DNA from: Acidobacteriota bacterium
Lineage (GTDB): Bacteria; Acidobacteriota; UBA6911; RPQK01; JAJDTT01
Assembly (NCBI GenBank): GCA_965217775.1
Contig: CBDCJH010000002.1
Location: 3,584,001-3,648,000 of the forward strand
DNA length: 64,000 nt
Direction: 5' to 3'
Part shown: in pieces, positions 23,851 to 44,927 of the stretch
Layout of the letters: each line of letters begins with the position of its first letter
How positions within the stretch are numbered: position 1 is the first letter of the stretch
Notes under the pieces: model-generated
The model's database searches: none
Seen by the model: only the letters and a program-made list of their open reading frames with translations
Told to the model about the DNA's origin: nothing
Made by a program: the position numbers and the translations under genes

Positions 23851-23879
23851 TTGACACTTTTCTCAGACGTCCATAGTTT
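23851..23879 (+). promoter_or_regulatory. Sigma70-like promoter
   Basis: TTGACA-17 nt-TAGTTT upstream of ATG 23899 (RBS GGAGG). Confidence 0.6.
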
Positions 23880-23898
23880 GATGCAGGGAGGTAGACAA

Positions 23899-25554
23899 AT
23901 GCAGCAGAGGGGCTTTCGAGGGTCGGATAGAGAGGTTGGGGGATCGTCGGCCGGGGCCGGAACCGGCTCACGGTTCGTTGCGGGTGCCCTGTCGGCGTGG
24001 GTTGCTTTTGCGGGCACGGCAGTGGCGGGCTCTGCGGGCCTCCTCCACATCGGCGGAGACAAGCAGCTTTTCATCGACGACTACGTCATCGAGAGTCTCA
24101 GCCACGCCAAGCAGATCCTCAACCCGGCCGTCAAGCATCCGGCGAACCCCCTCTTGAAACAGGACCGTCCCTGGGAGGGTCATTACGTTGGGCTCCAAAA
24201 GTTGATCTATGACCCGGACCGGGGAATCTACCGGATCTGGTACCGGACCACGGGGGCATTCGAATCCCAGAAGGGGGGCCCCGATCGGCTCCGGCCTTAC
24301 CGCTGGGACTGGAGTCTGGAAGACGGGCAGGCCGTCCGCAGCAAAGCGGAGGAGGTTTACGGTTACAAGCAATACGCCGACGGAAAGGATTGGCTTCTTT
24401 GTTACGCCACGTCTAGCGACGGCATCCATTGGGAGAAGCCCAATCTGGGCCAGGTGGAGTTCGAGGGCTCCCGCGACAACAACATCCTACCGCCCGGGAC
24501 CCTGGTTCCCCTGTTTCGGGACGAGCACGAAACCGATCCCGCCAAGCGCTACAAGTCCATGAGGTCCGAGGGCACGACTCCCACCGTCTGGAAGCCGGGA
24601 ATGAAGCCTGGGATGCGGCAAAGCCTCTACTACTCGCCCGACGGCTTCGAGTGGACGCCCTACGACAAAAATCCGGTGATCGACACCGCCCCCAAGATCG
24701 GCCGCTGGGGACCCACCTCACACATGGGCTGGGACCCCATCCGGCAGGTCTACGCCGTGTTCATGGAGCAGTGCCTGCACCGGGGCTGCCCCCGGGGGCA
24801 GCGGATCATCGGCCGGGCCGAGAGTCCCGACATGACCCGATGGACCCCGGATCAGAACGTCCTGATCCAGGACGAGTTGGATTATCCGGACACGGAGTTC
24901 TACTCCATGCCGGTCATGGCCTACGAGGGAATCTACATCGGGTTGCCCTGGATCTTCCGCACCACCAATACGCTGCATTACCCCCAACTGGCCTTCAGCC
25001 GGGACGGGATCCGCTTCGAGCGGCGGTACCGCCAACCCTTCCTGCAGGTGGGCAGCAAAGGGGATTTCGACGAGAGCACCATCTACGTGCACCAGCCCAT
25101 GGTCCGTGACGGGGAGATCCGGATCTACTACTACGGCGGCAACTGGAGGGGGTCCGAGGCACTCCACGAACAGGGAGGCCGGGCCATGTTCGCCGTGGCT
25201 CTGGCGACGGTTCGCGAGGACGGGTTCGTCTCGGTGGACGCCGGCAAGATCCACCCCGGAGTCCTCACGACCCGCTTCCTCAGCTTCGAGGGCCGCCGTC
25301 TGATGGTAAATCTGGAGGCCGCCAAGCACAACCACGGCTCGGGACGGCCCGAGGTCCGGGTCGAGATCATCGGAAACGACCACCATCCGATCCCGGGCTA
25401 TAAGCTGGACGAGTCCGATCCGGCCCGGGTGACCGGGAAGCACGTGATGAGCTGGCGGGGACAGACGGAACTGGGCGCCCTGGCCGGAACACCGGTGCAG
25501 CTGCGCTTCGTAATTCGAAACGCCAAGCTCTTCTCGTTCCAGTTCCGACCCTGA
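23899..25554 (+). CDS. Secreted beta-propeller glycoside-hydrolase-like protein
   Basis: KQLFIDD; repeated Asp-box-like S-x-DG-x-x-W/F motifs (SSDGIHW, SPDGFEW, SRDGIRF); REDGFVS; C-terminal LFSFQF. Confidence 0.75.
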   Translation: MQQRGFRGSDREVGGSSAGAGTGSRFVAGALSAWVAFAGTAVAGSAGLLHIGGDKQLFIDDYVIESLSHAKQILNPAVKHPANPLLKQDRPWEGHYVGLQKLIYDPDRGIYRIWYRTTGAFESQKGGPDRLRPYRWDWSLEDGQAVRSKAEEVYGYKQYADGKDWLLCYATSSDGIHWEKPNLGQVEFEGSRDNNILPPGTLVPLFRDEHETDPAKRYKSMRSEGTTPTVWKPGMKPGMRQSLYYSPDGFEWTPYDKNPVIDTAPKIGRWGPTSHMGWDPIRQVYAVFMEQCLHRGCPRGQRIIGRAESPDMTRWTPDQNVLIQDELDYPDTEFYSMPVMAYEGIYIGLPWIFRTTNTLHYPQLAFSRDGIRFERRYRQPFLQVGSKGDFDESTIYVHQPMVRDGEIRIYYYGGNWRGSEALHEQGGRAMFAVALATVREDGFVSVDAGKIHPGVLTTRFLSFEGRRLMVNLEAAKHNHGSGRPEVRVEIIGNDHHPIPGYKLDESDPARVTGKHVMSWRGQTELGALAGTPVQLRFVIRNAKLFSFQFRP

Positions 25555-25598: not shown

Positions 25599-26997
25599 AG
25601 AAAGGGACAGTCTCGATTCCCGTCTCGTTGTGAGAATCCCGCCCGGAAGCAGAGCAGTGAATCCTTGGCAAATGGATGGAAGTCCGGAGGACTTTCCACA
25701 CATTAACAGGACAATTCAGGCTATAGGGTGGTTCCCGTGATCTGGGTCGTCCGGTGCCACGGTGGCAGAATCGACGGGCGGAGATCAGGCGAGTCTAGGA
25801 GACGAAGGCGTGCGAGCGCTGCTCCCGCAGGGAAAACAGCACTCCGCCCAGTTGGGGGATGGGGCGTCGGCGACGCCGATATCGACCTTGCTTTCGATAC
25901 GTCTCCAGCAGTTGCGCCACCTTCTCTGCCGGACCGACGGCCAACCCGTCCGTCAGAAATCGCAAACGCCGGCGAAAGGCTCCGGCACGGGTAAATCCAC
26001 GTTGCTGCTCCTGATGGAGGATCCACCGGGGGATCGCGGCCTGGTTCTCCCGGGTGGGGACGGCTCCTCGATAGTACAAGCGAGCCCGGTAACTGCTGTA
26101 CACGTCGGTTCCGGGATCCGAGGGGAACAGTTCCTCCAGTGGAATCAGATCTTGATCCTCGCCGGTGAGTCTCCAGCGGGCCGAGCCCCACTGCCATTGC
26201 TCGGGCCTTTTGACCAGTCCGGCCCGGACGGCGTTGAGTTCCACGTAGAGGATGGCGTCCTGGACGGCTTCGCTTCCCAAGAGTTCCGGGTTCTTGAAAC
26301 GATCACCCCAAAGATGGCCTCGCCGTTTGAAATTGCGGTTGAACCACCGGGCATAGAACCCGTCCACGTTCGCCATCAGTTTCGACACGTCAAAGAGACG
26401 CTGGTTGAAAGCCTCCCACTGGGCGACGGTCCAATCGGCGGTTTTCTTCTCTGCCTGTTGTCCATAAAGCTTGTGGGCGCTGTCCATCAACTCGTCGCGG
26501 GACAGGGGGCGGGGTTTCTCAAAATGGATGACGAAGTGGAAGTGATTGCCCATGATCTGGAAAGCGGCCAAACGACACCGGTAGACATTGACGTAGAACG
26601 ACATCATGTCCAGGAGTTTGCGACCGGCTTGGTGGTTTTTAAAGGGGAACCAATCGGAATTGCCGGCGACTCGATTGGTGAGGTGATAGAAGGCGGCTTC
26701 TGAACTCTTGTGTCGTGCGGCTCGGGCCATGGCCACAATCCTCGGTTCGGTTAGGACTCGGACTCGCGGCGTAGTCGTTTCGCAAACCTTTATGACACCA
26801 ACGATTCAGAACTGAGAAAGGCGAAGGAAACTCAAGAAACCCGGCAAACCTCATCTTTCCGGATGCAACCGAGGAAACTTGACCAGGTGACCACCTCAGT
26901 CGTTTTGGCAGCCCAAGGAGCCGGTACTTTTGTGGTCTATTCCATGCTTCCGGTCCCCCTGCCTCCGGTCCCCAAAAATAGACTGTCCCCTTTTTCT
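25599..26997. mobile_element. RAYT-type element bracketed by imperfect inverted repeats
   Basis: AGAAAGGGACAGTCT (25599-25613) and AGACTGTCCCCTTTTTCT (26980-26997) flank the transposase; the element sits between two convergent genes. Confidence 0.55.
25795..26736 (-). CDS. REP-associated tyrosine transposase (RAYT, HUH Y1 family)
   Basis: YHLTNR, IMGNHFH (HUH), RRGHLWGDRFK and YVELNAVRAGLV..PEQWQWGS motifs. Confidence 0.9.
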   Translation of the reverse strand: MAMARAARHKSSEAAFYHLTNRVAGNSDWFPFKNHQAGRKLLDMMSFYVNVYRCRLAAFQIMGNHFHFVIHFEKPRPLSRDELMDSAHKLYGQQAEKKTADWTVAQWEAFNQRLFDVSKLMANVDGFYARWFNRNFKRRGHLWGDRFKNPELLGSEAVQDAILYVELNAVRAGLVKRPEQWQWGSARWRLTGEDQDLIPLEELFPSDPGTDVYSSYRARLYYRGAVPTRENQAAIPRWILHQEQQRGFTRAGAFRRRLRFLTDGLAVGPAEKVAQLLETYRKQGRYRRRRRPIPQLGGVLFSLREQRSHAFVS

Positions 26998-27004
26998 CTT
27001 TTTC

Positions 27005-28498
27005 TCACTTGAACCGGAAGGAATAGAGATCGGCGTCCTGGAGGACGATGCGCAGGCGGACCGTCTTTCCGGCGACTCTCCGGAGGGGTTTCGCACGAAC
27101 CTTGCCTCCATGAATCCACCCGGCCTTCCCTTCCAGCTCGTCCCCCCAGATGGGGACCGATTCGGTCAGTGAGAGTCCGGGCGCCGGGTTGCCGTTGACG
27201 TCCTGGATCTCCACCTGGATGGAGCCGGCCGCGGAAGTGGAGTAGTTCAGGATCAGGTTCTCTCCGCTGAACCGGAACGGTTTCGTGATCAACTCGCCTC
27301 CCGGATAGCCGGCGCTGGCGGAGGCGAAGCCATCGGTCCTGACCACGACGCGCTGCAGGTGCGCCGTCGGATAAGTGTAGTGCTGCACCGTGTAGAGGGA
27401 GAGCTCCCCCGGCGCCGTGGGGACGATGCCCCGGGCCACTATGCCGTTCCGGTGGATCCAGTTGCGCCGGTCCCGTCCGGGACGGATGAAGGCTTCCATG
27501 AAGCGGTGCCAATGGACCCCGTCCCGGCTGCTCATGAAGACGGCATCGGAGATTCCGGCCCTTTCGGAGGCAATGGCGGGATCCAGATGCCGGGGAATCC
27601 TCCAGTTGACGAAGCGCTTGGGAAAGGAAAGGTAGATATGGGGAGCGCGAAAATAGGGAACGGTGGCATTGGTGTAGAGCTGCTCCGTGGGAGCGTCACC
27701 GTAGTCCACCCACCGGCCCTCGGACCATTCGACGAAGTCCTTGGAGGTGGCGTACTTGAGGGTCCGGACCCCGTGGACGAAATCTCGGTAGAGCGCCACG
27801 TAGATCCCCCGCTCTCCGTCCCAGAAGGCCACGTTGTGGGAGTCGAAGGCGCCGTCGGTGATGACCGGAACCTCACGCATCCAGCTCCAGCGGATGCCGT
27901 CGGGAGAGGACAAGGCCACCAGACCCCGATGGTTCCCGGGCTTGGCGAAGGCCACCGCCTTGTAGCGGGCCTCGGCCGGCGCCGACGGATTGTCGTCCCG
28001 GAAGGGATTCAGCTTGGCGGCACCCCGGATCTCCAGAATATTGTTGTCCCGGGTGCCGTTGAACTCCACCTGCCCCAATGAGGGACGGGTCCAGTGGATG
28101 CCGTCGCGGCTCTCGGCGTAGCAGGAGACCTTTTCGTGGGCGGCGACCCAAGTCTCCCCCGGTTCCAGCTCCTCCCGGTGGATATAGTCCACCGCGGCGC
28201 TGCCCCGGTAGTACATCCGGAAGACCTCCCCGTCCTTGAAGACCGCCACGTGAAAGGGAATGTTCCCTTCCCAAGGCTGGTCGAAGACGAAGACCTTCTC
28301 GGCTCGCCGGGGCTGCTGGACCTCCAGTTCCACCCCATTCATGGACTCGATGAGGGCATCGTCGACGAAAAGCTCCAGACGGGTCCCCAGGTTGGGAGCC
28401 GGGTTGGAATCGGCGGCCTTTTTTCCGTGACTCGACGCCTCGACGCCGGGCACGCCCACCAGAACCAGCACTACAAACATCCGCAAAATCGATTTCAT
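27005..28498 (-). CDS. Secreted beta-propeller glycoside-hydrolase-like protein, paralogue of 23899-25554
   Basis: Signal peptide; ELFVDD, SRDGIHW, SPDGIRW, SRDGVHW, RTDGFAS; C-terminal LYSFRF. Confidence 0.78.
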   Translation of the reverse strand: MKSILRMFVVLVLVGVPGVEASSHGKKAADSNPAPNLGTRLELFVDDALIESMNGVELEVQQPRRAEKVFVFDQPWEGNIPFHVAVFKDGEVFRMYYRGSAAVDYIHREELEPGETWVAAHEKVSCYAESRDGIHWTRPSLGQVEFNGTRDNNILEIRGAAKLNPFRDDNPSAPAEARYKAVAFAKPGNHRGLVALSSPDGIRWSWMREVPVITDGAFDSHNVAFWDGERGIYVALYRDFVHGVRTLKYATSKDFVEWSEGRWVDYGDAPTEQLYTNATVPYFRAPHIYLSFPKRFVNWRIPRHLDPAIASERAGISDAVFMSSRDGVHWHRFMEAFIRPGRDRRNWIHRNGIVARGIVPTAPGELSLYTVQHYTYPTAHLQRVVVRTDGFASASAGYPGGELITKPFRFSGENLILNYSTSAAGSIQVEIQDVNGNPAPGLSLTESVPIWGDELEGKAGWIHGGKVRAKPLRRVAGKTVRLRIVLQDADLYSFRFK

Positions 28499-28519: not shown

Positions 28520-29425
28520 CTACATGCCGAGCCGCCGGCTCGCCGGATCGATGATCCAGAGCCAATCGTCCGCGAGGAACTCCAGCCTCTGGGCCATCAG
28601 GGCGATGCGCCCCATCACCGTGTAGCCGAAGCCGGCCCCGAAGGTGATCATGAGGAACCAGATTCCCAGGCGCGAGACGCCTCCCACGACCCCCTTGTGC
28701 TCGATGGAAAAGAAAAAATAGACCAGACAGGACAAGACTCCGACCACGATGGTCAGATTCTGGAGGGAGGCCGAAAAGTCGAATCCCTGAGTCCCCACCA
28801 CGACGAGGGGAAGAATCGTGCTCTGGACCTGCCGGATGAAGTCGCCCTGGAGATAGCCCAGGAGCCGGATCCCGGCGGTGGCTCCGATGAAGAAGGCCAG
28901 GGCCCAGCGGGAGATCCAGCCCCCGACCGGAGAGAGTCTCATCAACATCAGGACGCTCAGGAGCAGTGGGACCAGGTAGATGAGTTCCTGTTCCTGCGAC
29001 TCCGGGAGGCCCGGGAGCACCGAACCCCGGACCAGATCGGGAGCCAGCTTGCTGAACAGGTTCTGAACGATTCCGGTCCAGAATCCGACGACCATCCAAT
29101 AAGCCGCCGAGACCCCGACAAAGATGGCCTCCGCCAACTTGTAAAGGGGATTGTCGCCATAGAGAAAGGAGAGGATGAAGAGCGTGAAGAGGGCGGCCAA
29201 CCAGTTCCCCACGGTTCGGGACCAGCTCACCCGAACCCCCTCTTCACCCTGCCGCTTGGGATCCACACCGGCGGTCCGGCTCCAGGATTCCTGACCCGGT
29301 TCCTGGACTTCCACCGGCTGGTCCTGAACGTAGACCAGTCCCATGCCTCCCGTCGCCAGCCTCACCAGCAGGTAGATCCCGGCCACCACCATCAATGCCG
29401 TCCAAACCCACCCGGAGCGGCTCAT
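28520..29425 (-). CDS. Multi-pass membrane protein of the GlmL-linked operon
   Basis: About 7-8 hydrophobic segments; SFLYGDNPLYKLAE and LMITFGAGFGYTVMGR; ATGA overlap with the upstream gene. Confidence 0.85.
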   Translation of the reverse strand: MSRSGWVWTALMVVAGIYLLVRLATGGMGLVYVQDQPVEVQEPGQESWSRTAGVDPKRQGEEGVRVSWSRTVGNWLAALFTLFILSFLYGDNPLYKLAEAIFVGVSAAYWMVVGFWTGIVQNLFSKLAPDLVRGSVLPGLPESQEQELIYLVPLLLSVLMLMRLSPVGGWISRWALAFFIGATAGIRLLGYLQGDFIRQVQSTILPLVVVGTQGFDFSASLQNLTIVVGVLSCLVYFFFSIEHKGVVGGVSRLGIWFLMITFGAGFGYTVMGRIALMAQRLEFLADDWLWIIDPASRRLGM

Positions 29426-30282
29426 GACGCCACCCCCTTTCGCCGCTCCCAGAAGTAGATGACGTTGCCCAGAACGATGAGCAGGATCACCAGCATGTGG
29501 GCCAGGAGCTGTGGGCCCATTCGCCGCAGTCCCTCCTGCGCCGTGTCATTTTCCGCCAGGCCGGGATAGAGGTCGATGACCGCCTGCTCGTATTCGGCCG
29601 CCGCCTTGATGGCCGCCAGCAGGCCGGTCAGTTGTCCCGGAATGTAGGGATACAGCGACGGGGCCGTGACTCCCGTGGTGCCCCCGACGATCTCCAGGTC
29701 GTAGGGGGTCGCGGCATAGAGCACCCACTCCTTGGTGCCCGGATAGCCCGCGCTCACGTTGACGATGAGGTCCATCTGGCGGATGTTCTTCAGGTTTCGG
29801 GTGAGTGGCAGCTCATCCAGGCTGGTCCCGTCCACGTCGTTGGCGAAGAGCTTCTTCAGGTCCCCCACCACCACCTTGATGACCCCCTCGCTGCCGGGGC
29901 GGAACCCCAGGTTCACGTAGTCGCTCCCGTACTCGTAGTCGGGAAACTCCCGCTTCAGGAGGTCGATGCTCTCCTGGATCAACGGCCCTCCGGTGGCCCA
30001 GAGCGTCAGGAAGTAGAGCTTGTGCTTCTTGTAGGCGCAGTGGCGGACGAAGGCGGCGGCCATGGGACTCAGCTCGCCCCGGCTGGCGGGGTCGAAGTCC
30101 CAGGCCATCAAGACTTCCGATCCCTGGGGGAGCTCCTCGATGGCCGAGCGGACGTTCAGGACCATGGGCGATGGACTCTCGGGAAACCGGATCCCGAACA
30201 GTAGCGGAATCAGGATGGAAATCAGCATCAGGAGAAAGATCCAGCGCCGGTCCAGATTGCGAAAGAATTCGGCGACCTTCAT
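29422..30282 (-). CDS. Membrane-anchored protein of the GlmL-linked operon (TM, soluble alpha/beta domain, TM)
   Basis: DRRWIF followed by a TM segment; YGSDYVNLGFRPG and KAAAEYE; C-terminal TM. Confidence 0.85.
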   Translation of the reverse strand: MKVAEFFRNLDRRWIFLLMLISILIPLLFGIRFPESPSPMVLNVRSAIEELPQGSEVLMAWDFDPASRGELSPMAAAFVRHCAYKKHKLYFLTLWATGGPLIQESIDLLKREFPDYEYGSDYVNLGFRPGSEGVIKVVVGDLKKLFANDVDGTSLDELPLTRNLKNIRQMDLIVNVSAGYPGTKEWVLYAATPYDLEIVGGTTGVTAPSLYPYIPGQLTGLLAAIKAAAEYEQAVIDLYPGLAENDTAQEGLRRMGPQLLAHMLVILLIVLGNVIYFWERRKGVAS

Positions 30283-30285
30283 GGG

Positions 30286-30972
30286 CTATTCCTCCGTTCC
30301 CAGGTAGGATCGATCGACGCCCAGGAGAATCTTCAGGGAGAGTGAGACCACCCCCAGGCCGATGCCGATGGTGATGGCCCGGTTCCCCGCCAGATTGAAG
30401 ACGTTCATGATGGTCTCGGTGAGGTTGTCGAAGTGGAGCGCCTCCGGCAGCCACCCCGTCAGGGCCGTGCCGGCATAGGTCCGCCCCACCAGGACGATGA
30501 AGGCGGTCGAGAGCAGAATGAGGGCCTCGGCGTTCTTGGCCCGGAAGGCGCGAAACGCGGCGGAGGCGATGAAGCAGGCCAACAGGGCGAACATGGTGGC
30601 CCCCAGGGGATAGAAGGCATACTGGTAGACGAACCAGAAAAAGCTTCCCTCCTGAACGTAGTCCCCCGACCAGGCGAACTGGGAAAACTGGGGGCTGGGG
30701 TGGGCGCCCAGCTTGGCCATCCCGACGACCAGCGTCAGAAAGAAGGCGATGACGGTGACGGCCGCGTAGCCCCAGCCGGCCCTCCGGTACGAGATCTTCT
30801 GCAGGTTGAGCTTCACCAGGTTGGCGCCTCCCAGAATGAAGGCGATGGCGGCCAGGATGTCGAACCAGATCATGGCCTCTTCGCCCCAGGACTGGGTATA
30901 GGGAACGAAGTGGGCGCCGATGAGGACGAATCCCGTAACCGCGGCAATGAGCAGGGGAAGAGTTCTCTTCAT
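30286..30972 (-). CDS. Multi-pass membrane protein of the GlmL-linked operon
   Basis: About 6 TM segments; ATMFALLACFIASAAFRAFR; C-terminal LKILLGVDRSYLG. Confidence 0.85.
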   Translation of the reverse strand: MKRTLPLLIAAVTGFVLIGAHFVPYTQSWGEEAMIWFDILAAIAFILGGANLVKLNLQKISYRRAGWGYAAVTVIAFFLTLVVGMAKLGAHPSPQFSQFAWSGDYVQEGSFFWFVYQYAFYPLGATMFALLACFIASAAFRAFRAKNAEALILLSTAFIVLVGRTYAGTALTGWLPEALHFDNLTETIMNVFNLAGNRAITIGIGLGVVSLSLKILLGVDRSYLGTEE

Positions 30973-30984
30973 AGTGTGCTTTCC

Positions 30985-32196
30985 TTACCAGCCCTGGCTT
31001 CCCAGGACGTGATCGGTCAGATATGCCAGCATCTGGTTCAGCACCGCAGCATCGGTCAAGACCGCGGCAGTGGACAACAGGCATCCGACGACCACCAGCG
31101 TTCCTCCCAGGACCTTTCCCACGTCCTGGCCCTTGAGGCTGCCCAGTTGGTGGCTCTCCCCGGAGAGGTAGGCCGAGGCGGCGAACAGCTCCTCACCGAT
31201 GAGCGTGTAGTCGCACGCCGCCACGAAGAAGGGGAGCTGCGAGGGCATGGCGGTTCCGGCCACCTGGATGGCGCCGACGGCGTTGCCGGTCTCGGCCAGA
31301 ATCAGCGACTCGGCGAAGAAGGCGCCCATGTAGAAGCAGGCGGCCGGCCGTTCCCGGAGCATCTTACCGGTGACGCCGGCCACGTACCCGAACTGCTCGT
31401 CGGTCAGGTAGTAGACCGCGTCCTCGTTGAAGGCATCGGGACGGCCTGCCCCCAGATAGGCCGCCTCCACAGTTTCCCGGCAGGCCGTCATGACCAGGGA
31501 ACGGGAAGTGGGAACGTCCAGCCGGGCGTCGAATTCGGCTGTCAATCCGGCCACGTGCGACAGGACCGTGACGCCGGCGAGGGTCTGCATGTCGTTGATG
31601 TCCAGGATTCCGGGGACGAAGAGACAGGGACGCCCCATCTCGGTGGCCCGCCCCACGGCTTCGTCCACCGCTTCCAGTCCCGCGATCCGGCGGACCTTGA
31701 GTTCGCGTCCGCTCCGGGCCAGTTGGATGAAGTAGACGACGCTTCCCCCCACGATCAGCAGGATCACGCCGAACCAGAGTTGGGAGAAGTCGAAATACTG
31801 CATGACCGGCGTCACCGGCCCCCTCGTGGCGGCGGCGGGTGACCGTGCACCGTCCGGTCCAATGGCCACGACCTGGTAGAGGTAACTGGCTCCCGGCGTG
31901 CACCGGTCGTCCTTGAAGGACCGGGTCTGGTACGTCTCTTCTCCGATTTTGGTGAAGCTCTCCCCGGCCGCTTCCCGCCTCAGGATCTCGTAGGCGACGA
32001 CCAACCGTTCCGCGGGTTGGGGCTGATCGTCGGGGGAGAGTTCCCACTCGACCTGCACCGCCTCCCCGGCGTCATTGGGAAAGTCGACGGCCCGCACTTC
32101 ACCGGGCGGCCGGGGGGATTGCGCCAGGACCGGAGAGGCCCCTCCCGAGAGGACGAGACCGCCGGCCAGCACCGAAAAGAAAATCGATTTGTCCAT
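30985..32196 (-). CDS. Signal peptide, fibronectin type III domain and membrane-associated domain (DUF6754-like from recall)
   Basis: Fn3 pattern PPGEVRAVD..VEW...YEILR...YLYQVVA; TM; then RRIAGLEAVDEAVGRATEMGRP and QLPFFVAACDYTLIGEELFAASAYLS. Confidence 0.8.
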   Translation of the reverse strand: MDKSIFFSVLAGGLVLSGGASPVLAQSPRPPGEVRAVDFPNDAGEAVQVEWELSPDDQPQPAERLVVAYEILRREAAGESFTKIGEETYQTRSFKDDRCTPGASYLYQVVAIGPDGARSPAAATRGPVTPVMQYFDFSQLWFGVILLIVGGSVVYFIQLARSGRELKVRRIAGLEAVDEAVGRATEMGRPCLFVPGILDINDMQTLAGVTVLSHVAGLTAEFDARLDVPTSRSLVMTACRETVEAAYLGAGRPDAFNEDAVYYLTDEQFGYVAGVTGKMLRERPAACFYMGAFFAESLILAETGNAVGAIQVAGTAMPSQLPFFVAACDYTLIGEELFAASAYLSGESHQLGSLKGQDVGKVLGGTLVVVGCLLSTAAVLTDAAVLNQMLAYLTDHVLGSQGW

Positions 32197-32201
32197 CTTG
32201 T

Positions 32202-33326
32202 TCACGCCTCGATCAGTTCCACGTTGGCCCGCGGCACCACCAGCCGCCGGCCCGACTCCGAGCGGACCTCCAGCACCCGTGCCCGGGACCCGGAGCCCAG
32301 AACCTGGGGTTCGGCCGGAAGCCCGGAGACCACGCCGATCAATCCGAAATGCGGGTCCCGGATCACCCGCACCGGCGTTCCCAACTCCAGCCTGCCGACA
32401 GGACGCGCCTCGTCCACTTCCACTGCCTCTCCGGGAGCCGACGGAATCACGATTTCCGGCCGCAGGACCCCGGCGCGAATCTGAGTCGCCCCGTTGACTG
32501 ACGCTGGGTCCCCTTCCCGGGAGGCCAGCAACTGGAAGGTCTTGCGGGCCATGGCGATTCGGCCGAACCCTTCGGTGATGATCAGGGTCGTCGCCACCGG
32601 TTCCGATCCGGTGATGGCGACCCCCAGGTCGTAACCCAGGATCTCCCTTAGATCCGCATCGTCCATGCCTCCCGAGACCAGGGCCGAGATGCCGATCCGA
32701 AAGGCCTTGCGGACGGCTCCTCCCGTCATCCGGCTGCCGCCGACCACGACGGCTCCCTTCATCCCCTCTTCCAGCCGCTCGGCCGTCAACTCTTCCTTCT
32801 CGTCCCGGCAGGCCATTCGGACGGGCCCGAAGGCCTCGCCGCCGATTCCAAAGATCCCCTGGATGAAGGTGGCGTCCGCCTCCAGCACGACCCCTTCTCC
32901 CGGGATCTCCTCGACCACCTGGCCGGCCAGATAGGCCAGGACCCGGACCGGGATCGGTTCTCCGCGAAGGATGACCTGCCCCGTGACTTGGGAAATGGAC
33001 TCGATGGTCCCCGCAACCCTGGCCCTGCACTCCGACTTGAACAACCCGAAAATGCCCTTGGTCCGAGCCAGGGCCTCGCCGGCTTCCACCCGCATGCCGG
33101 GCTCCTTGAGCATGCATTCGGGGACGTCCGCGGGGGGCAGCGACAGGAGGTTGGCCACGTTGACCGGCGTGATGCTTCCCGGCATGAAGGTCTGGGCGAC
33201 CACCTCCCGGGAGTCCACCTGCTGTCCCGCCCGAACCAGAACATCTCCCTTGATGGGCAGGATCCGCCGGCAGCGATGTCGGGTTCGAGGACTGACCTTC
33301 AGACCTGGGGTGTATGCGTGGGCCAT
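32202..33326 (-). CDS. Soluble hypothetical protein with barrel-sandwich-hybrid repeats and a C-terminal KOW-like motif
   Basis: GDVLVRAGQQV and KEPGMRVEAGEALA...RARVAGTIESI repeats; IQGIFGIGGE, TEGFG and GATQIRAG; C-terminal GTPVRVIRDPHFGLIGVV. Confidence 0.85.
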   Translation of the reverse strand: MAHAYTPGLKVSPRTRHRCRRILPIKGDVLVRAGQQVDSREVVAQTFMPGSITPVNVANLLSLPPADVPECMLKEPGMRVEAGEALARTKGIFGLFKSECRARVAGTIESISQVTGQVILRGEPIPVRVLAYLAGQVVEEIPGEGVVLEADATFIQGIFGIGGEAFGPVRMACRDEKEELTAERLEEGMKGAVVVGGSRMTGGAVRKAFRIGISALVSGGMDDADLREILGYDLGVAITGSEPVATTLIITEGFGRIAMARKTFQLLASREGDPASVNGATQIRAGVLRPEIVIPSAPGEAVEVDEARPVGRLELGTPVRVIRDPHFGLIGVVSGLPAEPQVLGSGSRARVLEVRSESGRRLVVPRANVELIEA

Positions 33327-33341
33327 CCTCCGTTGACCTCG

Positions 33342-35162
33342 TCAATCCCGTTCCGGAACCGCGGGCACCAGTTCCAAATCCCGGACCCATTGAGTCATGG
33401 CCTTCCGGCAAGCCTCACGACCGGAGGGCAACGTCAGCGGACGTCCCCTCGCGTCCAGCAGGACTCCCACCGTCCCGCCCCTGAGCTCACCCTCCAGGGG
33501 CCGGCCGGGACCCGCCCCCGCATCCACTTTCCGTGCCGGCTCCACCACAATTCGCGCACTGGCTCCCAGGCCCAGCGGCAGCCGCTTGACCTCGCCGAAG
33601 GAGAGGGCGCCCTCGTTCTCCAGGCCGTCGCCGGAGATGGAATAGCGGAAGGCCGGGCTGCCCCAGGCGCCGGTTCCCCTGGGAGCCACGCAGGTTCCCA
33701 GGGAGATGAGGCAATCCCTCTGGAACACCTGGAGCGCGGCCTCCGGGTGGACCTGGGCCAGAACCCCCAGGTGCGGCATCATGAAGATGCTGTCCTTGGC
33801 CAGCCAGGTGATCCCCTCGGGCTGAAAGGCGTCCACCAGGAGCGCCGCCGTCTGCTGCATCAAGGGGGCATGGGAAAGGACTCCTCCCGATCCCACCAGC
33901 AGATCCAGCTTCATGTTGTCCACCAGGGTCTGTCCGCTGGCCTCCTGCCTGAAGGTGTCTCCCACGGTCCTCTGCTGCTGCACGCCCTTGAGCGTGGTGG
34001 CGAACTGCTTGTGCTGGTCATAGGCCAGGCGCAGGGCCTCGCGCGCCACGGCCTGCTCGAAGCACAGGGATTCCCGGGTCTGGGGAATCGTGGTGGGGCG
34101 GATCATCTTGTTCTTGACGTGGTTCCGCAGCTCCCCCTCCTCCATCTCCAAGTGGACCCAACGGAGGATGGAGGGCAGCGTCGCTTCGGCACAGACGTTG
34201 GAGATGGAGTAGCTCATTCCCAGGTTGGCGCTCACGGTGCGGTTGAAGGTGCCGTCGAAGACGCTGAAGACGTCGGTCGTGGCCCCGCCGATGTCCACGC
34301 CGACCACGTTGATCCGCTGCTGTTCGGCGATCCTCTGCAGGATGTTCCCCACCGCCCCCGGGGTGGGCATGATGGGGGCGTCGGTCCACTGGATCAGCCG
34401 TTCGTAGCCGGGGGCATGCGCCATGACGTGTTCCAGAAACAGGTCATGGATCTTGTCCCGGGCCGGACCCAGATTCTCCCGCTCCAGGACCGGACGCAGG
34501 TTGGGAACGACGGAGAGCTGGACCGACTCGTCGAAGGTCTGCTCCACCAGCGGCGCCGCGTCCCGGTTCCCCGCGAAGATCACCGGCATCCGGTACTCGG
34601 CTCCGAAGCGGGGCTGGGGACGGGCCGGCGCGATGAGCTCGGCCATCTGCACGACGTGGCGGGTGGTCCCGCCGTCGGTCCCTCCCGAGATCAGCACCAT
34701 GTCGGGCCGCAGCTCCCGGATCCGGTGGATCTGCTGGTGGGGGAGGCGGCGGTCATTGGAGGCAAGAACGTCCATGACGATGGCGCCGGCGCCCAGGGCC
34801 GCCCGCTTGGCGCTGGCGGCCGTCATCTCCCGCACCACGCCGGCCACCATCATCTGGAGGCCACCGCCGGCACTGGAAGTGGAGATGTAAAGATCGCACC
34901 CTTCACCATCGGCAGCGGGCCGGAGAATCCGGCCGGCATCGTCGATGAGGCGGCGGCCAGCCATTTCGGCCACCTCCGAGACGGCGTTCACGACGCCCAG
35001 GGTCACGTCGGCCGCCGGTTCCTCAACCGTCGTGGGAGCCTCGCCCCGGTGGGTCTGCCGGTATTCTCCACCGACCTTTTGGATGAGGATGGCCTTGGTG
35101 GTGGTGCTCCCGCAGTCGGTGGCCAGGATCACGTTGATGGATTCGGGATCGATCTGCTTCAT
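33342..35162 (-). CDS. GlmL/MutL (glutamate mutase L) family ASKHA ATPase with a C-terminal extension
   Basis: TDCGSTTTK, SSAGGGL, SGGTDGG, IMPTPGAV, VDIGGATTDV and GSGGVLSHAP motifs; ATG 35162 overlaps the upstream stop. Confidence 0.88.
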   Translation of the reverse strand: MKQIDPESINVILATDCGSTTTKAILIQKVGGEYRQTHRGEAPTTVEEPAADVTLGVVNAVSEVAEMAGRRLIDDAGRILRPAADGEGCDLYISTSSAGGGLQMMVAGVVREMTAASAKRAALGAGAIVMDVLASNDRRLPHQQIHRIRELRPDMVLISGGTDGGTTRHVVQMAELIAPARPQPRFGAEYRMPVIFAGNRDAAPLVEQTFDESVQLSVVPNLRPVLERENLGPARDKIHDLFLEHVMAHAPGYERLIQWTDAPIMPTPGAVGNILQRIAEQQRINVVGVDIGGATTDVFSVFDGTFNRTVSANLGMSYSISNVCAEATLPSILRWVHLEMEEGELRNHVKNKMIRPTTIPQTRESLCFEQAVAREALRLAYDQHKQFATTLKGVQQQRTVGDTFRQEASGQTLVDNMKLDLLVGSGGVLSHAPLMQQTAALLVDAFQPEGITWLAKDSIFMMPHLGVLAQVHPEAALQVFQRDCLISLGTCVAPRGTGAWGSPAFRYSISGDGLENEGALSFGEVKRLPLGLGASARIVVEPARKVDAGAGPGRPLEGELRGGTVGVLLDARGRPLTLPSGREACRKAMTQWVRDLELVPAVPERD

Positions 35163-35473
35163 TTGCCGGCCGAATCGAGTTCTTCGATCCGGCGACAAAG
35201 ATAGTCCACCGAGCCCCGATGCTCAAGAAAGGCGGCCAAGTGCCGGTGTCCGTGGGACTGGGTGAGTCCCGAGAGCATGGGCGACAGGAAATGCAGCAGC
35301 TGGGAACCCAGGAAGTTGAGGGGGCGGGACATTTCAAGAAACATGAGAGCCGACGTGGCCAGCCGGCGCCGCACCAGTTCCCGGCAGATCCGATCGGCCA
35401 CCTGGCGCTGCTCGTCCGAGGGTTGGAACTCGGACGGAGTGTCTACGGCAAAGGCGTGCCGCCAACCCTTCAT
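35159..35473 (-). CDS. Small hypothetical protein, first gene of the GlmL operon
   Basis: 104 aa, helical (LVRRRLATSALMFLEMSRPLNFLGSQLLHF); translationally coupled to the GlmL-like gene. Confidence 0.75.
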   Translation of the reverse strand: MKGWRHAFAVDTPSEFQPSDEQRQVADRICRELVRRRLATSALMFLEMSRPLNFLGSQLLHFLSPMLSGLTQSHGHRHLAAFLEHRGSVDYLCRRIEELDSAGK

Positions 35474-38900: not shown

Positions 38901-41900
38901 TTGGACACATATATGAACTTACCAACACAACCCTCCGTGCCAAGTGGCCTTCCTGCCTATTTGGTTGGACAAGCCGGATTTGATCACCTTTGCACCCTCC
39001 TCGGCATTGAAACCACAGCCCGCAAACAAAGTGTCGTTGGCAGCGAGGCCGTTAGACGTGCTCTGAAACAACTCGGCCCTGCGCCACGAGGCCTTCGCAG
39101 GGCCGGTCGCCTGAAGTGGAGCTTGGTAACCTTCTATAGCTCGCCACGACATCGGCTTAGGAACTGGCAAATTCACGTAGATGCTGACCTCGATTCATCC
39201 AAGTTAATACCATCCCTTGAAGCAAACATTATAAGCAAATTCGACAACGATCTGTATACCGCCGCGATCGATGATGCCGCATTAGTCGACTGCCATAACT
39301 TCTTTGACGCTGAGGAGGAATTGGAGCCATGGAAACAACCCGCCGTCGGTGCCCTGCCGATAATACATAGAGAAATCCTCAACTGGCAGAAGCTCGAACT
39401 CAAACGGCGTGATATCGTGGCGTTAGCCGCCTTCGCCGTCGCGACGATTCTGGAGGACTCACGTTTACTCTTCTGGGCCGCTGAAACAGTTGACGACCTC
39501 GCTACAGAATTCTCGTTCATGGGCGACTCTTTCACCTCCAGAGTCGACGATGTAGAGTCTGATCAAATCTCCAACGTTCCAGCCAGGAAGCAAAATGTCG
39601 TACAAACGTTTCGCAATGCATGCAAGGACTTGGCTGAAATCGCATTGAAACTCCGCTGTGACCCACCGGACTTCCAGTTATTCCAAGATCTGTCACGTCG
39701 CTACGACGCTGTCCGGGACTTAAGAGAACGCGCCATCAGCGAATTGGTAGCAAACCAGGTAACGAATTTTCTGACTGCAATCGAAGAAACCATCCTCTCG
39801 CAAGCCACAGACGCCTCATGGCTGGGGGGAGAAGTAGAGAAGATTCTCGCGTCATGGGCTGGAGAGTATCCCACCAACAATACCGATCTTGAAACCCTGA
39901 AAACCGATGTCGAGAGGGTTAAGCACGACTTGCCAGTCGCCATAAATGCGTGGCATTCGGCGGTCAAGACTACACAGACGATGTTGCGAGATTTGCGTGA
40001 GGTCGAAGTGGAAGGAGGTCTCGCCGGTCAGCTTAGTGCAAACAGGCGTGCCGAAGAACTCTATACGGCCATCGCAGCCGCAAAACGCGGCGAGATCGAT
40101 GCGATTCATCATGCGCTCCAATTAGCGTCGCCTAGTGGCCAAGGCTGCACAATCGCATCTGCCGCTCAGTCAGAGGAGGAACCTCTTAGTAACCAGAATG
40201 CAGAATTGACGGATAACGACAACGGCATCGAAACAACCCAGGAGCACCAAGCGCCCTTCCAGCATCAACCTGAACCACCTCCGGCCAAACCAGACATTGT
40301 CGGAGGCGGCGATGTTCATCCCACTATCGTCCAAGAAACAACCGCGACAGACGCCACCGAATCCCCCACCGCGACCGATCAAGCCACCACTCGCAATATC
40401 TCGGACGAATCCACCCTCCCACAATCTGAGACTGGAGACCAACTTGACTCACCTATCAGCGCGCTCGCTGAACCTGCTTGGCAAGCCATTGGACATCACC
40501 TTCCAGGTATCGCCTACCACATCGTACGCCTGACACCGTTTGAACAGCGAAACCCGACGTTTCCTCCCGCGGATCTCGTCGCAGCGGCCGCTGTGGCTAA
40601 TTCCGTAAATGTACCAAATGATAAAGTCGTAGAGACGCTTACCGAGTACTTGACAGGGATTCATCCTAACGACTTGAAACGGGATAATGAAGACGTCCGC
40701 GATGCTTTACACTTGTTACTTTTGTCAGCAACATTGCGTCCCGCTCTCTTCGCTCCATCAGCTGGCGGACTGTCGCAGTTGCGGCATTTAGAACTATCTT
40801 CTGCTTTTTCCTCAGTGTACGAACTTGCCGAAGTCGTCGCCAATCACGCAGAGTCATTGCAGGCCATAAGCCTTGACGTTGCCCGAGTTCGAGGCGCCCT
40901 TAGTAAGACTGCGTGGCAATACCAAGTTGAACAGCACATGGAAGCTGTTCAACAGTGGCTTCGAAATGCCGGCTCTCAGCGCATCCTCCATGGTCCTACA
41001 CAACGTGTGTGGAAACACTGGCAACGTAAAGATGGCATATTGGGAGAACTCGTCGATCTTCTCTTGAACATCGACCAAACAAATCAAGATAGAGTCCGGG
41101 AGATCCAAGCGAAACTTGAAGACCGACAGGCATACGTTACTCTTGTCAATTACACAGACCGGATTCAACTAGGACGAAAGACGGGCAAAAACATCGAAGG
41201 CCGTGCGTTGACCCAGCTTCGCAAGCACACAGTTCCGATACTAGAGTTCTTGCGGAATTGGCATCGCCTCCTCGCAGCTAAACCAGATCCTACAAATTAC
41301 ATCGACCGCACAATCGTCTCCCTTCGGCACGCTTTGCATATACACGGTCCGGCCGCTATCTTGACACTCAACAATTTCGAGCTCCAACAGCCAATACTGC
41401 CAGTTGCCGCTGCCATTAAATGGGCTCGCATTTCCATTGAAGATTTAGTGGCCTTATTCGACAGCACGGATGCCGTCGATGTCACCGAGCGACAACCGCA
41501 ACTCGTCAACGTCGATCACGATCTCGTGTTCGCCGTTGACGTGGATATAGATCGTGACTATCACTTCGCGGATGGCCAAGACCCTAAACTATGTCTCAGC
41601 TACCTTGCCCAAACAGCCTTGCGTCCCCCGACATTACCAGAAGCGTTTCACGCACGTTCCGGGAGAGGTGATTTAATTGGTGCTAGGCTAGCGTGTGATC
41701 GTATGGACGCAGTCGCCGACTCAGAAGCTGACCGTTGTCGCATTGATCTCGATAACATTATCCAACAAAAGCGTCGCGAATTACGCGCGCTCCGGATGAA
41801 GTTAACCGGCGACATTGAACAGAGCTATTGTCTAGGACAACTCACGCCGGACCAACGCGATGATCTAGCCGCGCGGTGTGTCGCGACCCACGTGGCTACT

Positions 41901-44900
41901 ACACACGCAGACACCGTAACGATCGCAATCAAAGAACTGAGAGCAATTGATGGGTGCCTCCGCGAGTATCGCGATAAGAGCACTGCAACGTTGATCAATA
42001 GCATTCGTGAATTGAAAGGCAAGGCGACGCCCGAGGAAATGTCACTCATTAAGGAGGCCCAAGACACGAATGATCTCGTAACAGTGCGAGAGTACGCGGA
42101 ACGTCTTAAAAATGGAAATCCAATTATAGCCACCGGCTCATCCGAACCGGACAGTTTTGCTGATTTTCTCGACGCCCTGCCCGAGATCAATAATGTACTT
42201 GAAGCATCGAATCGCCCGACACACGGTTCGATTATTGCGGCGGTTAAACGGCGAGAAAGCGTCGCTAGCATTAATTTTGCGTCCATGACCGAACATGAAG
42301 CCACGCAGGCGAGCCATCTCCTAGAGGCGTGGTATCAGATTGCTAGATATCACGAACTGGACAATCGCCTACTCCGCGATCTTTTCTCCCTACTCGGTTT
42401 TGACGTAAAGACAGTCGAGACCGCTGGCGACCGGATAGCAGTAGTCCAAACTGAACCGTTGCAAGACCGAACGCTGTGTCCGATACACATGTTCGGCTCC
42501 GCTGCTAACGGTCAGTACAGGGTCCTACTAAACTGGCGCACACCGGCCCGTGATTCGCTCGTCCAGGCAATCGGCGGACTACGCGGCCAACTTATGGTCC
42601 TCCATTTCGGTCCCCTTGGCGATGATAGAGAGTTCCTTCGCAATTGGTCCTTACAAAACCAACGTCTTTTCCTAGCGATTGACGAAGCTCTGGTACTCTT
42701 TCTTGCCGCAAGACCCAACGGTCGTTTAAAAGCCCTATATGATTCCACACTTCCATACACGGCCGCAGATCCGTTTGTCACGACTTCAAGCCTAGTACCT
42801 CCCGAAATGTTTTATGGTCGCACCTACGAACGGGAGGAAGTGATGAACCAATATGGCGGCTGTTTCGTCTACGGCGGTCGCCAACTTGGGAAGACGGCGC
42901 TTCTCCGTTCCGCAGAAACAGTCTTTCACCACCCAAAGACTAGGCACATCGCTAAATGGATCGATCTCAAAGTTCGTGAAATTGGTTATGCCCGTCAGAC
43001 TGAAGACATTTGGAGCGTTCTTTGGAAAGAGCTAACCGAGGTCGGTATCATTCCTGAAATGGGCTCTCAGCCTAAAGGTACACGCAGCCTCGTTTCGACT
43101 CTCACGCGCGCCATAAAAGAGTGGCTCAAGGACAACAAAGACAGTCGGATCCTATTGCTACTGGACGAAGCGGATGCTTTTCTCGAGGCAGACGCCCACA
43201 CAGATTTCCTTGAGTCTACACGACTCAAGGGATTGATGGATGAAACCGAACGTAGGTTTAAGGTAGTATTTTCTGGTTTACACAATGTATTGCGGACCAC
43301 AGAACGAGCCAACCACCCGCTCGCTCACTTCGGTGATCCCATCTGCATCGGCCCACTTCTCCACAACGGCGAGTGGCAAAGCGCGAGGTCCTTAGCAAGG
43401 GAACCGCTTGCTGCAATCGGTTTTGGATTCGAACATGACAACGTTGTTACGCGTGTACTTGCAAGAACCAACTACTATCCATCGCTTATACAACTATACG
43501 GTGCTGAGTTGGTCCGGTACTTACGTGACTCAACTAGAGTACCTCCCTATCAGGTACGAGCCGACGATGTTAATGCCGTTTTCATGAGGGATGGTCTTCG
43601 CAACTATATTCGAGCCCGTTTTCTTCTCACGCTGCAGCTTGATCCACGCTATGAGGTCATCGCCTATTCAATGGCTCTAGACTTGCAGGAGCACGCGGAG
43701 AACTTGGCAAACGGGTTGTCTTCTGAACACATCGCAGAACAAGCACGATCATGGTGGCCGGATGGCTTCGATATCCCCGACATTGAGTTTGATACGCTAC
43801 TACATGAGATGGCCGGTCTAGGGGTCTTGCGACGCACGATAACAGAGTCCCATGAAGGACAACGTTACACGTTTCGCAACCCCAACGTTTTATTGTTGCT
43901 AGGCACAGCCAGTGATATCGAAAAAGCGCTGTATAAGCCACGAGAATTACCAAAGATATTTGAGGCATCATCGTTTCACGCTAGGTATGTTGGCGACGAT
44001 GATTCACCAAAGCGAGGTCCGCTTACCTACGATCAGGAGGCACGACTTCGAAATCACAGAGGCGTCGCGATACTTACGGGCACTCAAGCAGCAAATATTA
44101 GACAGGTTAGCAAGTTTCTCTCGGGTCGATTAGGGTCGAGTAATTTCAGGGAACTTGAGCCATGCTATGACACAAATAGATTGGAACGCCAGCTCACAAG
44201 TTTACGACCTGATCGACGACAGGGCCTCCATGTCTACATGGTGCCCTTCGAAACTCCGTGGAGTGCGCTATGGCTTGACAGAGCTGCCAAAACTCTTAGG
44301 AGAGTCCAGCGACGCAATCTAATTCGAGTCGTGTTCATTGCTGAACCACAGACTCTATGGAGTGTGTTGGCCGACATCGACGAAAACGCGATTCTTGCGT
44401 ATCTTAAGTCGGACACTAGGTATCTTAAGTCGGACGCTCGACAAACTCGCAAACGGATTGATTGGATAGGTCTTGGACCTTGGGATTTCAGCTTCCTGCG
44501 CCGATGGTGTGATGACCACGATCTTCAGGTCGATCAGGAGGTTATCGATAAGTTGATGGAAATGTCGGGAGGATGGCCGAAGATCTTGGAGCAATACGAC
44601 CGATCTCCTCATAAGCATTCACGAAATAGGTTGGCGGCATTGGATCAATTCATTATCCGCCACCGTTCCGATCTGTTGCGGCATCTGGGAATCGATACGC
44701 CTCTAGTTCAATTCGAGCTTGAAACATTGTTTTCGTACGAGGCATTCACGCCCGATCAGGTGATCCAGCTTGTAAAAATGCAACGAGAGTCACGGGAAGA
44801 ATCTCTTAGCAGCGTTTCGTTGCGGCGACGTTTGATCTGGGCACAACATCTCGGCATTCTGCAGAACCCGACTGGAACCTGGCAGGTCAATCCTCTAGTT

Positions 44901-44927
44901 CAGAAAATGCTAAAGAAAGAGTCTTAA
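38901..44927 (+). CDS. Giant (~2000 aa) STAND-type P-loop ATPase
   Basis: PFVTTSSLVPPEMFYGR, Walker A YGGRQLGKT (~42870), Walker B LLLLDEAD, FKVVFSG and TNYYPSLIQL; long helical N-terminus. Start is TTG 38901 or ATG 38913. Confidence 0.88.
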   Translation: MDTYMNLPTQPSVPSGLPAYLVGQAGFDHLCTLLGIETTARKQSVVGSEAVRRALKQLGPAPRGLRRAGRLKWSLVTFYSSPRHRLRNWQIHVDADLDSSKLIPSLEANIISKFDNDLYTAAIDDAALVDCHNFFDAEEELEPWKQPAVGALPIIHREILNWQKLELKRRDIVALAAFAVATILEDSRLLFWAAETVDDLATEFSFMGDSFTSRVDDVESDQISNVPARKQNVVQTFRNACKDLAEIALKLRCDPPDFQLFQDLSRRYDAVRDLRERAISELVANQVTNFLTAIEETILSQATDASWLGGEVEKILASWAGEYPTNNTDLETLKTDVERVKHDLPVAINAWHSAVKTTQTMLRDLREVEVEGGLAGQLSANRRAEELYTAIAAAKRGEIDAIHHALQLASPSGQGCTIASAAQSEEEPLSNQNAELTDNDNGIETTQEHQAPFQHQPEPPPAKPDIVGGGDVHPTIVQETTATDATESPTATDQATTRNISDESTLPQSETGDQLDSPISALAEPAWQAIGHHLPGIAYHIVRLTPFEQRNPTFPPADLVAAAAVANSVNVPNDKVVETLTEYLTGIHPNDLKRDNEDVRDALHLLLLSATLRPALFAPSAGGLSQLRHLELSSAFSSVYELAEVVANHAESLQAISLDVARVRGALSKTAWQYQVEQHMEAVQQWLRNAGSQRILHGPTQRVWKHWQRKDGILGELVDLLLNIDQTNQDRVREIQAKLEDRQAYVTLVNYTDRIQLGRKTGKNIEGRALTQLRKHTVPILEFLRNWHRLLAAKPDPTNYIDRTIVSLRHALHIHGPAAILTLNNFELQQPILPVAAAIKWARISIEDLVALFDSTDAVDVTERQPQLVNVDHDLVFAVDVDIDRDYHFADGQDPKLCLSYLAQTALRPPTLPEAFHARSGRGDLIGARLACDRMDAVADSEADRCRIDLDNIIQQKRRELRALRMKLTGDIEQSYCLGQLTPDQRDDLAARCVATHVATTHADTVTIAIKELRAIDGCLREYRDKSTATLINSIRELKGKATPEEMSLIKEAQDTNDLVTVREYAERLKNGNPIIATGSSEPDSFADFLDALPEINNVLEASNRPTHGSIIAAVKRRESVASINFASMTEHEATQASHLLEAWYQIARYHELDNRLLRDLFSLLGFDVKTVETAGDRIAVVQTEPLQDRTLCPIHMFGSAANGQYRVLLNWRTPARDSLVQAIGGLRGQLMVLHFGPLGDDREFLRNWSLQNQRLFLAIDEALVLFLAARPNGRLKALYDSTLPYTAADPFVTTSSLVPPEMFYGRTYEREEVMNQYGGCFVYGGRQLGKTALLRSAETVFHHPKTRHIAKWIDLKVREIGYARQTEDIWSVLWKELTEVGIIPEMGSQPKGTRSLVSTLTRAIKEWLKDNKDSRILLLLDEADAFLEADAHTDFLESTRLKGLMDETERRFKVVFSGLHNVLRTTERANHPLAHFGDPICIGPLLHNGEWQSARSLAREPLAAIGFGFEHDNVVTRVLARTNYYPSLIQLYGAELVRYLRDSTRVPPYQVRADDVNAVFMRDGLRNYIRARFLLTLQLDPRYEVIAYSMALDLQEHAENLANGLSSEHIAEQARSWWPDGFDIPDIEFDTLLHEMAGLGVLRRTITESHEGQRYTFRNPNVLLLLGTASDIEKALYKPRELPKIFEASSFHARYVGDDDSPKRGPLTYDQEARLRNHRGVAILTGTQAANIRQVSKFLSGRLGSSNFRELEPCYDTNRLERQLTSLRPDRRQGLHVYMVPFETPWSALWLDRAAKTLRRVQRRNLIRVVFIAEPQTLWSVLADIDENAILAYLKSDTRYLKSDARQTRKRIDWIGLGPWDFSFLRRWCDDHDLQVDQEVIDKLMEMSGGWPKILEQYDRSPHKHSRNRLAALDQFIIRHRSDLLRHLGIDTPLVQFELETLFSYEAFTPDQVIQLVKMQRESREESLSSVSLRRRLIWAQHLGILQNPTGTWQVNPLVQKMLKKES
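44399..44440 (+). repeat. In-frame 21-bp tandem duplication (YLKSDTR/YLKSDAR)
   Basis: GTATCTTAAGTCGGAC occurs at 44399 and 44420. Confidence 0.85.

Follow-up and report, generated by a model that had tools for sequence, protein, structure and literature searches.

In a 64,000-nucleotide stretch of an Acidobacteriota genome (assembly GCA_965217775.1, contig CBDCJH010000002.1, positions 3,584,001 to 3,648,000; hereafter the window), seven genes on the minus strand form an operon of about 7 kb (28520-35473), which combines an ATPase of the actin/Hsp70 (ASKHA) fold with four membrane proteins. Judged by sequence comparison, the operon represents a real, conserved and undescribed system, new as an assembly of parts and of putative function. 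The seven proteins probably constitute an ATP-coupled membrane machine of a new kind. Our favoured but tentative reading is that they form an ATP-coupled importer of a small organic solute. More doubtful, yet possible, is the wider proposal that they define a new class of primary-active importer, neither ABC nor P-type nor phosphotransferase system (PTS), where an actin/Hsp70-fold ATPase and a barrel-sandwich adaptor would power an antiparallel four-subunit carrier with one Rossmann-type domain per membrane face and interchangeable modules for different cargoes.

Organization of the operon

The genes, termed g1 to g7 in the direction of transcription, are separated by -4, 15, 5, 12, 3 and -4 nucleotides, respectively, and each occurs once in the 6.4-Mb host genome. 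An earlier, sequence-only reading of the window had described a co-oriented operon with gaps of at most 15 nucleotides or overlaps, and this description stands at the same coordinates. The first gene, g1 (35159-35473), encodes a small helical soluble protein of 104 residues without known family. The product of g2 (33342-35162) is a long-form, GlmL-related ASKHA ATPase of 606 residues, which carries about 120 extra C-terminal residues. Its soluble partner g3 (32202-33326) comprises barrel-sandwich hybrid domains, an alpha/beta core with a T-Q-I-R-A-G motif and a weak C-terminal KOW domain. In the form T-[QH]-[IL]-R-[AS]-[GEN], this motif is present in 23/23 divergent homologues.

The remaining genes encode the membrane module. 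The g4 protein (30985-32196) consists of a signal peptide, a periplasmic Fn3 domain and a predicted cytoplasmic, Rossmann-type DUF6754 domain flanked by two transmembrane (TM) segments, while g5 (30286-30972) encodes a 6-TM protein, predicted N-in/C-in. In g6 (29422-30282) a Rossmann-type domain, predicted to lie outside, is likewise flanked by TM segments, and g7 (28520-29425) encodes a core of about six TM segments, predicted N-out, with a lineage-specific extra N-terminal TM segment. Pfam assigns the g4 core to DUF6754 (PF20539; 399 bits) as a full member, a catalogued domain without function. For g1, g3, g5, g6 and g7 there was no Pfam or NCBIfam family above cut-off, and PDB sequence searches with all seven proteins gave no match below E 0.04 (best match of g1, E 0.042). 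A match of the membrane proteins to a characterised transporter, raised earlier as a possibility, did not emerge: none of them matches a Pfam or NCBIfam transporter family or a solved structure by sequence.

Conservation and distribution

A scan of GTDB with g2 confirmed at least 585 relatives out of 594 candidate stretches, the best 80 of which were kept as related loci. The seven-gene order is complete at 49 of these 80 loci, and at 45 of the 48 where the flank suffices; none of the 80 violates it. The proposal of a multi-subunit complex, which depended on a gene order conserved elsewhere, is upheld on this point. At the three exceptions to the full order (L061, L083 and L085) DUF6754 is encoded elsewhere in each genome, and at two loci with g2 alone, g3 is found elsewhere in the genome. 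The small g1 gene was seen at 65 of the 80 loci.

Among the matches listed, the nearest relatives (95-96% g2 identity) belong to the Acidobacteriota, and the majority of the rest to the Planctomycetota. The system is also recorded in Gemmatimonadota, Fibrobacterota, Clostridia, Cloacimonadota and Eremiobacterota. In the host phylum its module has a patchy distribution (9/301 genomes), and within the host genus it occurs in 5/5 genomes. A second survey covered 201 genomes of another phylum, to which a Clostridia genome belongs. There, 14 genomes have DUF6754, 13 have g3 and 12 have both (Fisher 2e-16, a value overstated because related genomes do not count as independent); PF13941, the family of g2, occurs in one form or another in 80 genomes, versus the 14 with DUF6754. 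This co-occurrence and the conserved linkage tie the ATPase to the membrane module, as the first reading had supposed. The same survey revealed up to 11 dispersed DUF6754 modules per genome. In Clostridia-type genomes g4-g7 are often a free-standing four-gene unit, the order of which is invariable.

Three sponge metatranscriptome runs, all from a single study, gave contigs that span 29-30 of 30 bins, and one contig connects g2, g3 and g4. This is a weak hint that the operon is expressed, since DNA may have been present in the libraries. Four additional RNA runs had a share of 0.07-0.08. A promoter and terminator scan gave a chance-level result.

The ATPase is a relative of GlmL in a separate clade

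The g2 protein matches the Pfam family MutL (PF13941) with 426 bits over residues 12-484. Its ASKHA motifs, D16-C-G-S-T-T-T-K, D290-I-G-G-A-T-T-D and S425-G-G, described from the outset as intact, are invariant across 34 homologues. While g2 shares these motifs and the PF13941 domain with GlmL/MutL (PF13941, NF040745, TIGR01319) and Or-4 (NF040744), it scores below all three curated NCBIfam cut-offs (score/cut-off: NF040745 234/475, NF040744 212/600, TIGR01319 164/204). Identity amounts to 27-31% with short, mutase-linked GlmL proteins, but to 56-78% with module-linked relatives across phyla. A tree of 68 rows splits 31 short ATPases (447-487 residues) from 37 long ones (about 600 residues) with an SH-like approximate likelihood ratio (SH-aLRT) of 100; the branch between them measures about 2.9 changes per column in a quick tree that carries a long-branch warning. 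The partners differ as well: g3 and the membrane module take the place of glmS/glmE or oraS/oraE. Taken at the level of sequence, g2 thus appears to be a GlmL relative but not GlmL, and to form a distinct clade. In PMC4682846, MutL/GlmL is termed a reactivating chaperone, but with a diol-dehydratase paper as its citation; PMC3958899 yielded nothing on MutL.

The sequence-only reading had further proposed that this ATPase is decoupled from adenosylcobalamin (B12) mutases. The search set comprised the host genome (97.9% complete) and 50 operon-bearing genomes, mostly incomplete metagenome-assembled genomes, picked from the 51 loci having g7. Neither glutamate mutase E (PF06368) nor lysine/ornithine aminomutase (PF09043) scored above cut-off in the host genome or in any of the 50 others (0/50 with glmE, oraE or kamD). 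Positive controls were provided by genomes with a short GlmL, where PF06368 was found in 4/5 and PF09043 in 3/5; in the four with GlmE, the glmE gene directly adjoins the short GlmL gene. In the genomes searched, the operon ATPase is independent of these mutases. A strict association with another B12 mutase encoded elsewhere was not found either: methylmalonyl-CoA mutase is present in 40/50 operon genomes and missing in 10/50, several of which are 5-9 Mb assemblies. The host genome seems to carry a methylmalonyl-CoA mutase gene pair far from the window, recognised by eye. The middle domain of g2 yields faint matches to B12-binding domains in 5/22 homologue segments (E 0.003-0.033). The cobalamin motif DxHxxG is absent from all 34 sequences of the g2 family, which suggests that the middle domain is probably an inherited flavodoxin-like module.

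Divergent g2-g3 pairs

Genomes with multiple modules harbour one highly conserved g2-g3 pair and up to several divergent pairs. The latter were sampled in 20 regions selected for their g2-g3 pairs, which stem from few related genomes. The divergent pairs keep the ATPase motifs, among the rows listed. A transporter of the major facilitator superfamily (MFS; H+-antiporter type) adjoins g2 in 5 of these 20 regions, and an unnamed family of soluble proteins of 280-335 residues is encoded beside g3 or g2 in 8. At L203, L204 (683-7263), L205, L206, L207, L210, L213, L214, L216 and L217 no DUF6754 module adjoins the divergent pair, and therefore g2-g3 can work where such a module is not adjacent. A radical SAM/SPASM peptide maturase is encoded directly upstream at L204, and L203 and L214 carry an HTH-TPR regulator. 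The module-free pairs possibly belong to a peptide-processing or export context.

Topology and conservation of the membrane subunits

The Lys/Arg bias places the g4 domain inside, the g6 domain outside, the N-terminus of g5 inside and that of the g7 core outside, and the two 6-helix subunits g5 and g7 are accordingly predicted in opposite orientations. The secondary-structure elements predicted for the g4 core and for g6 correspond one by one, running from a TM segment and a helix through six strand/helix units to a second TM segment; both are modelled as Rossmann-type domains with the same order of elements on opposite membrane faces. Fused g6-g7 proteins exist (P0135, P0147 and P0154), and in a DUF6754 protein of 935 residues (P0350) the ectodomain includes a g6-like domain that is circularly permuted and split into two pieces (residues 213-291 and 401-502). 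The fusions and the permuted domain fit the opposite-face topology.

In 245/253 pairs drawn from 23 modules, g4 shows higher conservation than g6 (mean 48% versus 37%), and among paralogous modules the inside domain is the most conserved and the outside domain the least. Invariant or near-invariant charged or polar residues are located in or at TM segments of all four subunits (g5 R141 and R198; g6 H262 and N273; g7 E99 and R273; g4 K361). The g4 ectodomain is elsewhere replaced by beta-propellers, Fn3 repeats or EF hands; this periplasmic extension is found in diderm lineages and missing in Clostridia-type genomes. At three loci g5 is split by about 1.1 kb after helix 3 (L011:14439-16265, L081:14664-16514, L017:4458-6074). 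Since the interrupted frame is open throughout at L011 and L081 (624-629 codons), these interruptions look like a large domain inserted in an outside loop.

Structural searches gave limited returns. Foldseek on the g6 model retrieved only GT-B/SDR Rossmann matches with root-mean-square deviations above 9, and the full g4 model, when used as a query for similar folds, matched almost nothing but Fn3, so that the DUF6754 core was hardly probed. A predicted complex of the g4 core, g5, the g7 core and g6 scored 0.64 and a control with g4 swapped 0.70, from which no verdict was drawn. Neither the g4 core nor a g7 homologue had a usable match in the ESM Atlas, a result informative on neither novelty nor absence.

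A model for ATP-coupled import

In the importer model, g4-g7 would form one inner-membrane complex of two oppositely oriented halves that may share ancestry. One half would comprise g4 and g5, with its Rossmann-type domain in the cytoplasm, and the other g6 and g7, with a similar domain outside. The ATPase g2, together with the adaptor g3 and the small g1, would dock on the conserved cytoplasmic DUF6754 domain. The variable outside domain of g6 would capture the solute, and the nucleotide cycle of g2 would drive or gate its inward movement. Substrate-specific transporters multiply within genomes, as the modules do. By analogy we presume a likeness in working to ABC and ECF importers, which also combine a soluble ATPase with multiplying membrane units, a docking face that is conserved and an outside face that varies.

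The cargo would most plausibly be amino acids, short peptides or their amides. Neighbouring genes were assessed at 20 Clostridia-type module loci, where the 98 nearest of 165 candidates were picked before functions were seen. Peptidases and amidohydrolases (TldD/PmbA, M20, C26, amidase, amidohydrolase) account for 11/98 module neighbours, spread over 7 loci, versus 2/100 genes, by an identical definition, in 20 control windows within that genome set (P 0.01). One further M20-type neighbour was named by NCBIfam only, and a look-alike is present at a second locus. These counts give a weak hint that the cargo is amino acids or peptides. Rfam yielded no match in the window and, for 16 of the 20 Clostridia-type loci, only a thiamine pyrophosphate (TPP) riboswitch and a distant T-box. 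Both were rejected as regulators of the module; the TPP riboswitch heads a thiamine-type ABC operon 4 kb upstream.

Several points weigh against this reading. Counted by locus, the cargo signal is 7/20 versus 2/20 (P 0.13), and the control rises to 8/100 (P 0.48) once the definition takes in oxoprolinase-subunit families and a cell-wall amidase. Moreover, several of the loci are orthologous, and one C26 context is common to 3 of the 7. No riboswitch lies directly upstream of the module in the window or at the Clostridia-type loci. The homology of g4 and g6 appears weak by sequence: hhalign aligned them in register at E 0.031 in one comparison, and two other comparisons were not significant; g5 and g7 gave no significant hhalign match to each other. 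The variable Fn3 and beta-propeller ectodomains suit a receptor equally well. Finally, a pure energiser does not need the MFS transporter and the unnamed soluble protein encoded beside g2-g3, and the module-free pairs would support an ATP-dependent enzyme or remodeller over a dedicated energiser.

Alternative explanations

The last argument leads to the best-surviving alternative, which we nevertheless consider unlikely. Here g2-g3, perhaps with g1, would be a cytoplasmic ATP-dependent enzyme, a kinase or a hydantoinase A/oxoprolinase-like activator of amides or lactams, which acts on a solute moved by g4-g7 as a facilitator or ion-coupled carrier, by way of a metabolon or group translocation. 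The g2 protein does match Hydantoinase_A (PF01968) above cut-off, but over 36 residues only, and no hydantoinase B-type partner (HyuB) is found among the seven genes. The g3 motif kept in all 23 divergent homologues could complete an active site. As a PTS-like phosphocarrier g3 was rejected, since no His occurs in its invariant or near-invariant columns. The MFS, unnamed soluble and, in one region, radical SAM/SPASM neighbours would suit an enzyme, but they accompany divergent pairs from few related genomes that also have the main system. Secondary carriers are typically built of oppositely oriented halves, and the predicted arrangement of the module would agree with a carrier of this type.

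Next in order, and also improbable, is a sensor that spans the membrane. A ligand or a polymer of the envelope would be bound by the outside domain of g6 and by the variable ectodomain of g4, and the cytoplasmic DUF6754 domain would switch the nucleotide state of g2, with a relay via g3 and g1. The exchangeable ectodomains agree with this proposal. However, the seven genes encode no output domain (DNA-binding, kinase or cyclase), and two 6-TM subunits with conserved intramembrane charges are more than a receptor needs. Matches to RCK domains, as known from Trk/Ktr and other RCK-gated channels, are of middling quality and score no better than those to unrelated Rossmann folds; unlike in those channels, the domain here is predicted outside with a membrane anchor at either end, and none of the seven proteins matches a TrkH/KtrB pore family (Pfam/NCBIfam).

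We attach little probability to an ATP-driven machine for export or envelope assembly. ASKHA proteins such as PilM, FtsA and MreB organise envelope and membrane complexes, the g4 extension is found in diderms and not in Clostridia-type genomes, and the conservation of g2 across phyla resembles that of housekeeping proteins. Against this stand the patchy distribution in the host phylum, the dispersed module copies within single genomes and the lack of a constant pilin, secretin or cell-wall gene neighbour. Least probable is a cobalamin-related chaperone, which would restore a B12 mutase from another locus to activity or deal with cobalamin entering via the module: the kinship of g2 with GlmL, the faint B12-binding matches and the frequent methylmalonyl-CoA mutase are outweighed by the missing glutamate and lysine/ornithine mutases in the face of positive controls, the ten genomes devoid of methylmalonyl-CoA mutase, the absent DxHxxG motif, the separate clade and the lack of a cobalamin riboswitch in the window and at Clostridia-type loci.

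Comparison with known systems

ATP-coupled import, as proposed here, would differ from that by ABC and ECF systems in its parts. The g2 protein has an actin fold (PF13941) and no P-loop ABC domain, none of the seven proteins matches ABC_tran, and the membrane subunits match no ABC, permease or S-component family (Pfam/NCBIfam) and no PDB sequence. Rnf/Nqr complexes offer another partial likeness. Homologues of g3 carry barrel-sandwich domains of the RnfC_N/NqrA_N type (RnfC_N with 45 bits versus a cut-off of 25.6 in L199), while g3 of the window itself has no Pfam match, RnfC_N included. Two oppositely oriented 6-TM subunits also resemble NqrD/E. Yet, g3, g5, g6 and g7 lack an invariant Cys, flavin and Fe-S families are missing, and no solved structure matches by sequence. 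Literature searches, which covered few subscription papers and no supplements, found no description of a DUF6754/PF13941 membrane system.

Neighbouring genes and flanking regions

A gene for a 2-TM protein of about 160 residues with a weak match to bacterial PH domains is located ahead of g1 at 33 related loci (e.g., L009:653-1135); the host genome has no homologue. In 8-14 planctomycete loci (among them L015, L030, L034, L037, L047, L051, L052, L054 and L073) a recurrent gene block lies on the opposite strand, 1.6-10 kb upstream of g2, and it resembles a pathway of tryptophan/kynurenine catabolism. At L129, L148, L208 and L209 the full operon, the module alone or a divergent g2-g3 pair is found directly upstream of tsaE-tsaB-(acetyltransferase)-tsaD, an adjacency in four genomes that probably goes back to an ancestral location and does not mark a link in function.

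Within the window, the gene at 27005-28498 (minus strand) starts 21 nucleotides past g7 and encodes an exported protein of 497 residues with no Pfam family and a faint glycoside-phosphorylase match. It was rejected as a core part, as it accompanies the operon at 4/80 loci. Its product has 130 tblastn matches in the host genome at E<1e-10, 117 of at least 300 residues, which amounts to a very large paralogue expansion; another paralogue lies at 23851-25554. Also downstream of the operon, an IS200-like Y1 transposase is encoded at 25795-26736 (minus strand). On the plus strand, an open reading frame for 2008 residues (38901-44927) lies in a stretch of low GC content (0.51-0.54 versus about 0.63), which is probably a horizontally acquired island.

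Implications

The match of g2 to the Pfam family of a glutamate-mutase helper invites mis-annotation and, with it, the false inference of glutamate fermentation. As a single-copy locus of seven genes and 7 kb, the operon constitutes a compact cassette for heterologous expression. Under the alternative explanations, too, it is a membrane system of several subunits, conserved in many lineages that have received little study. No solute transporter is known to be powered by an ATPase of the ASKHA fold, and a confirmed importer of this kind would therefore give transport biology a further mode of energy coupling.

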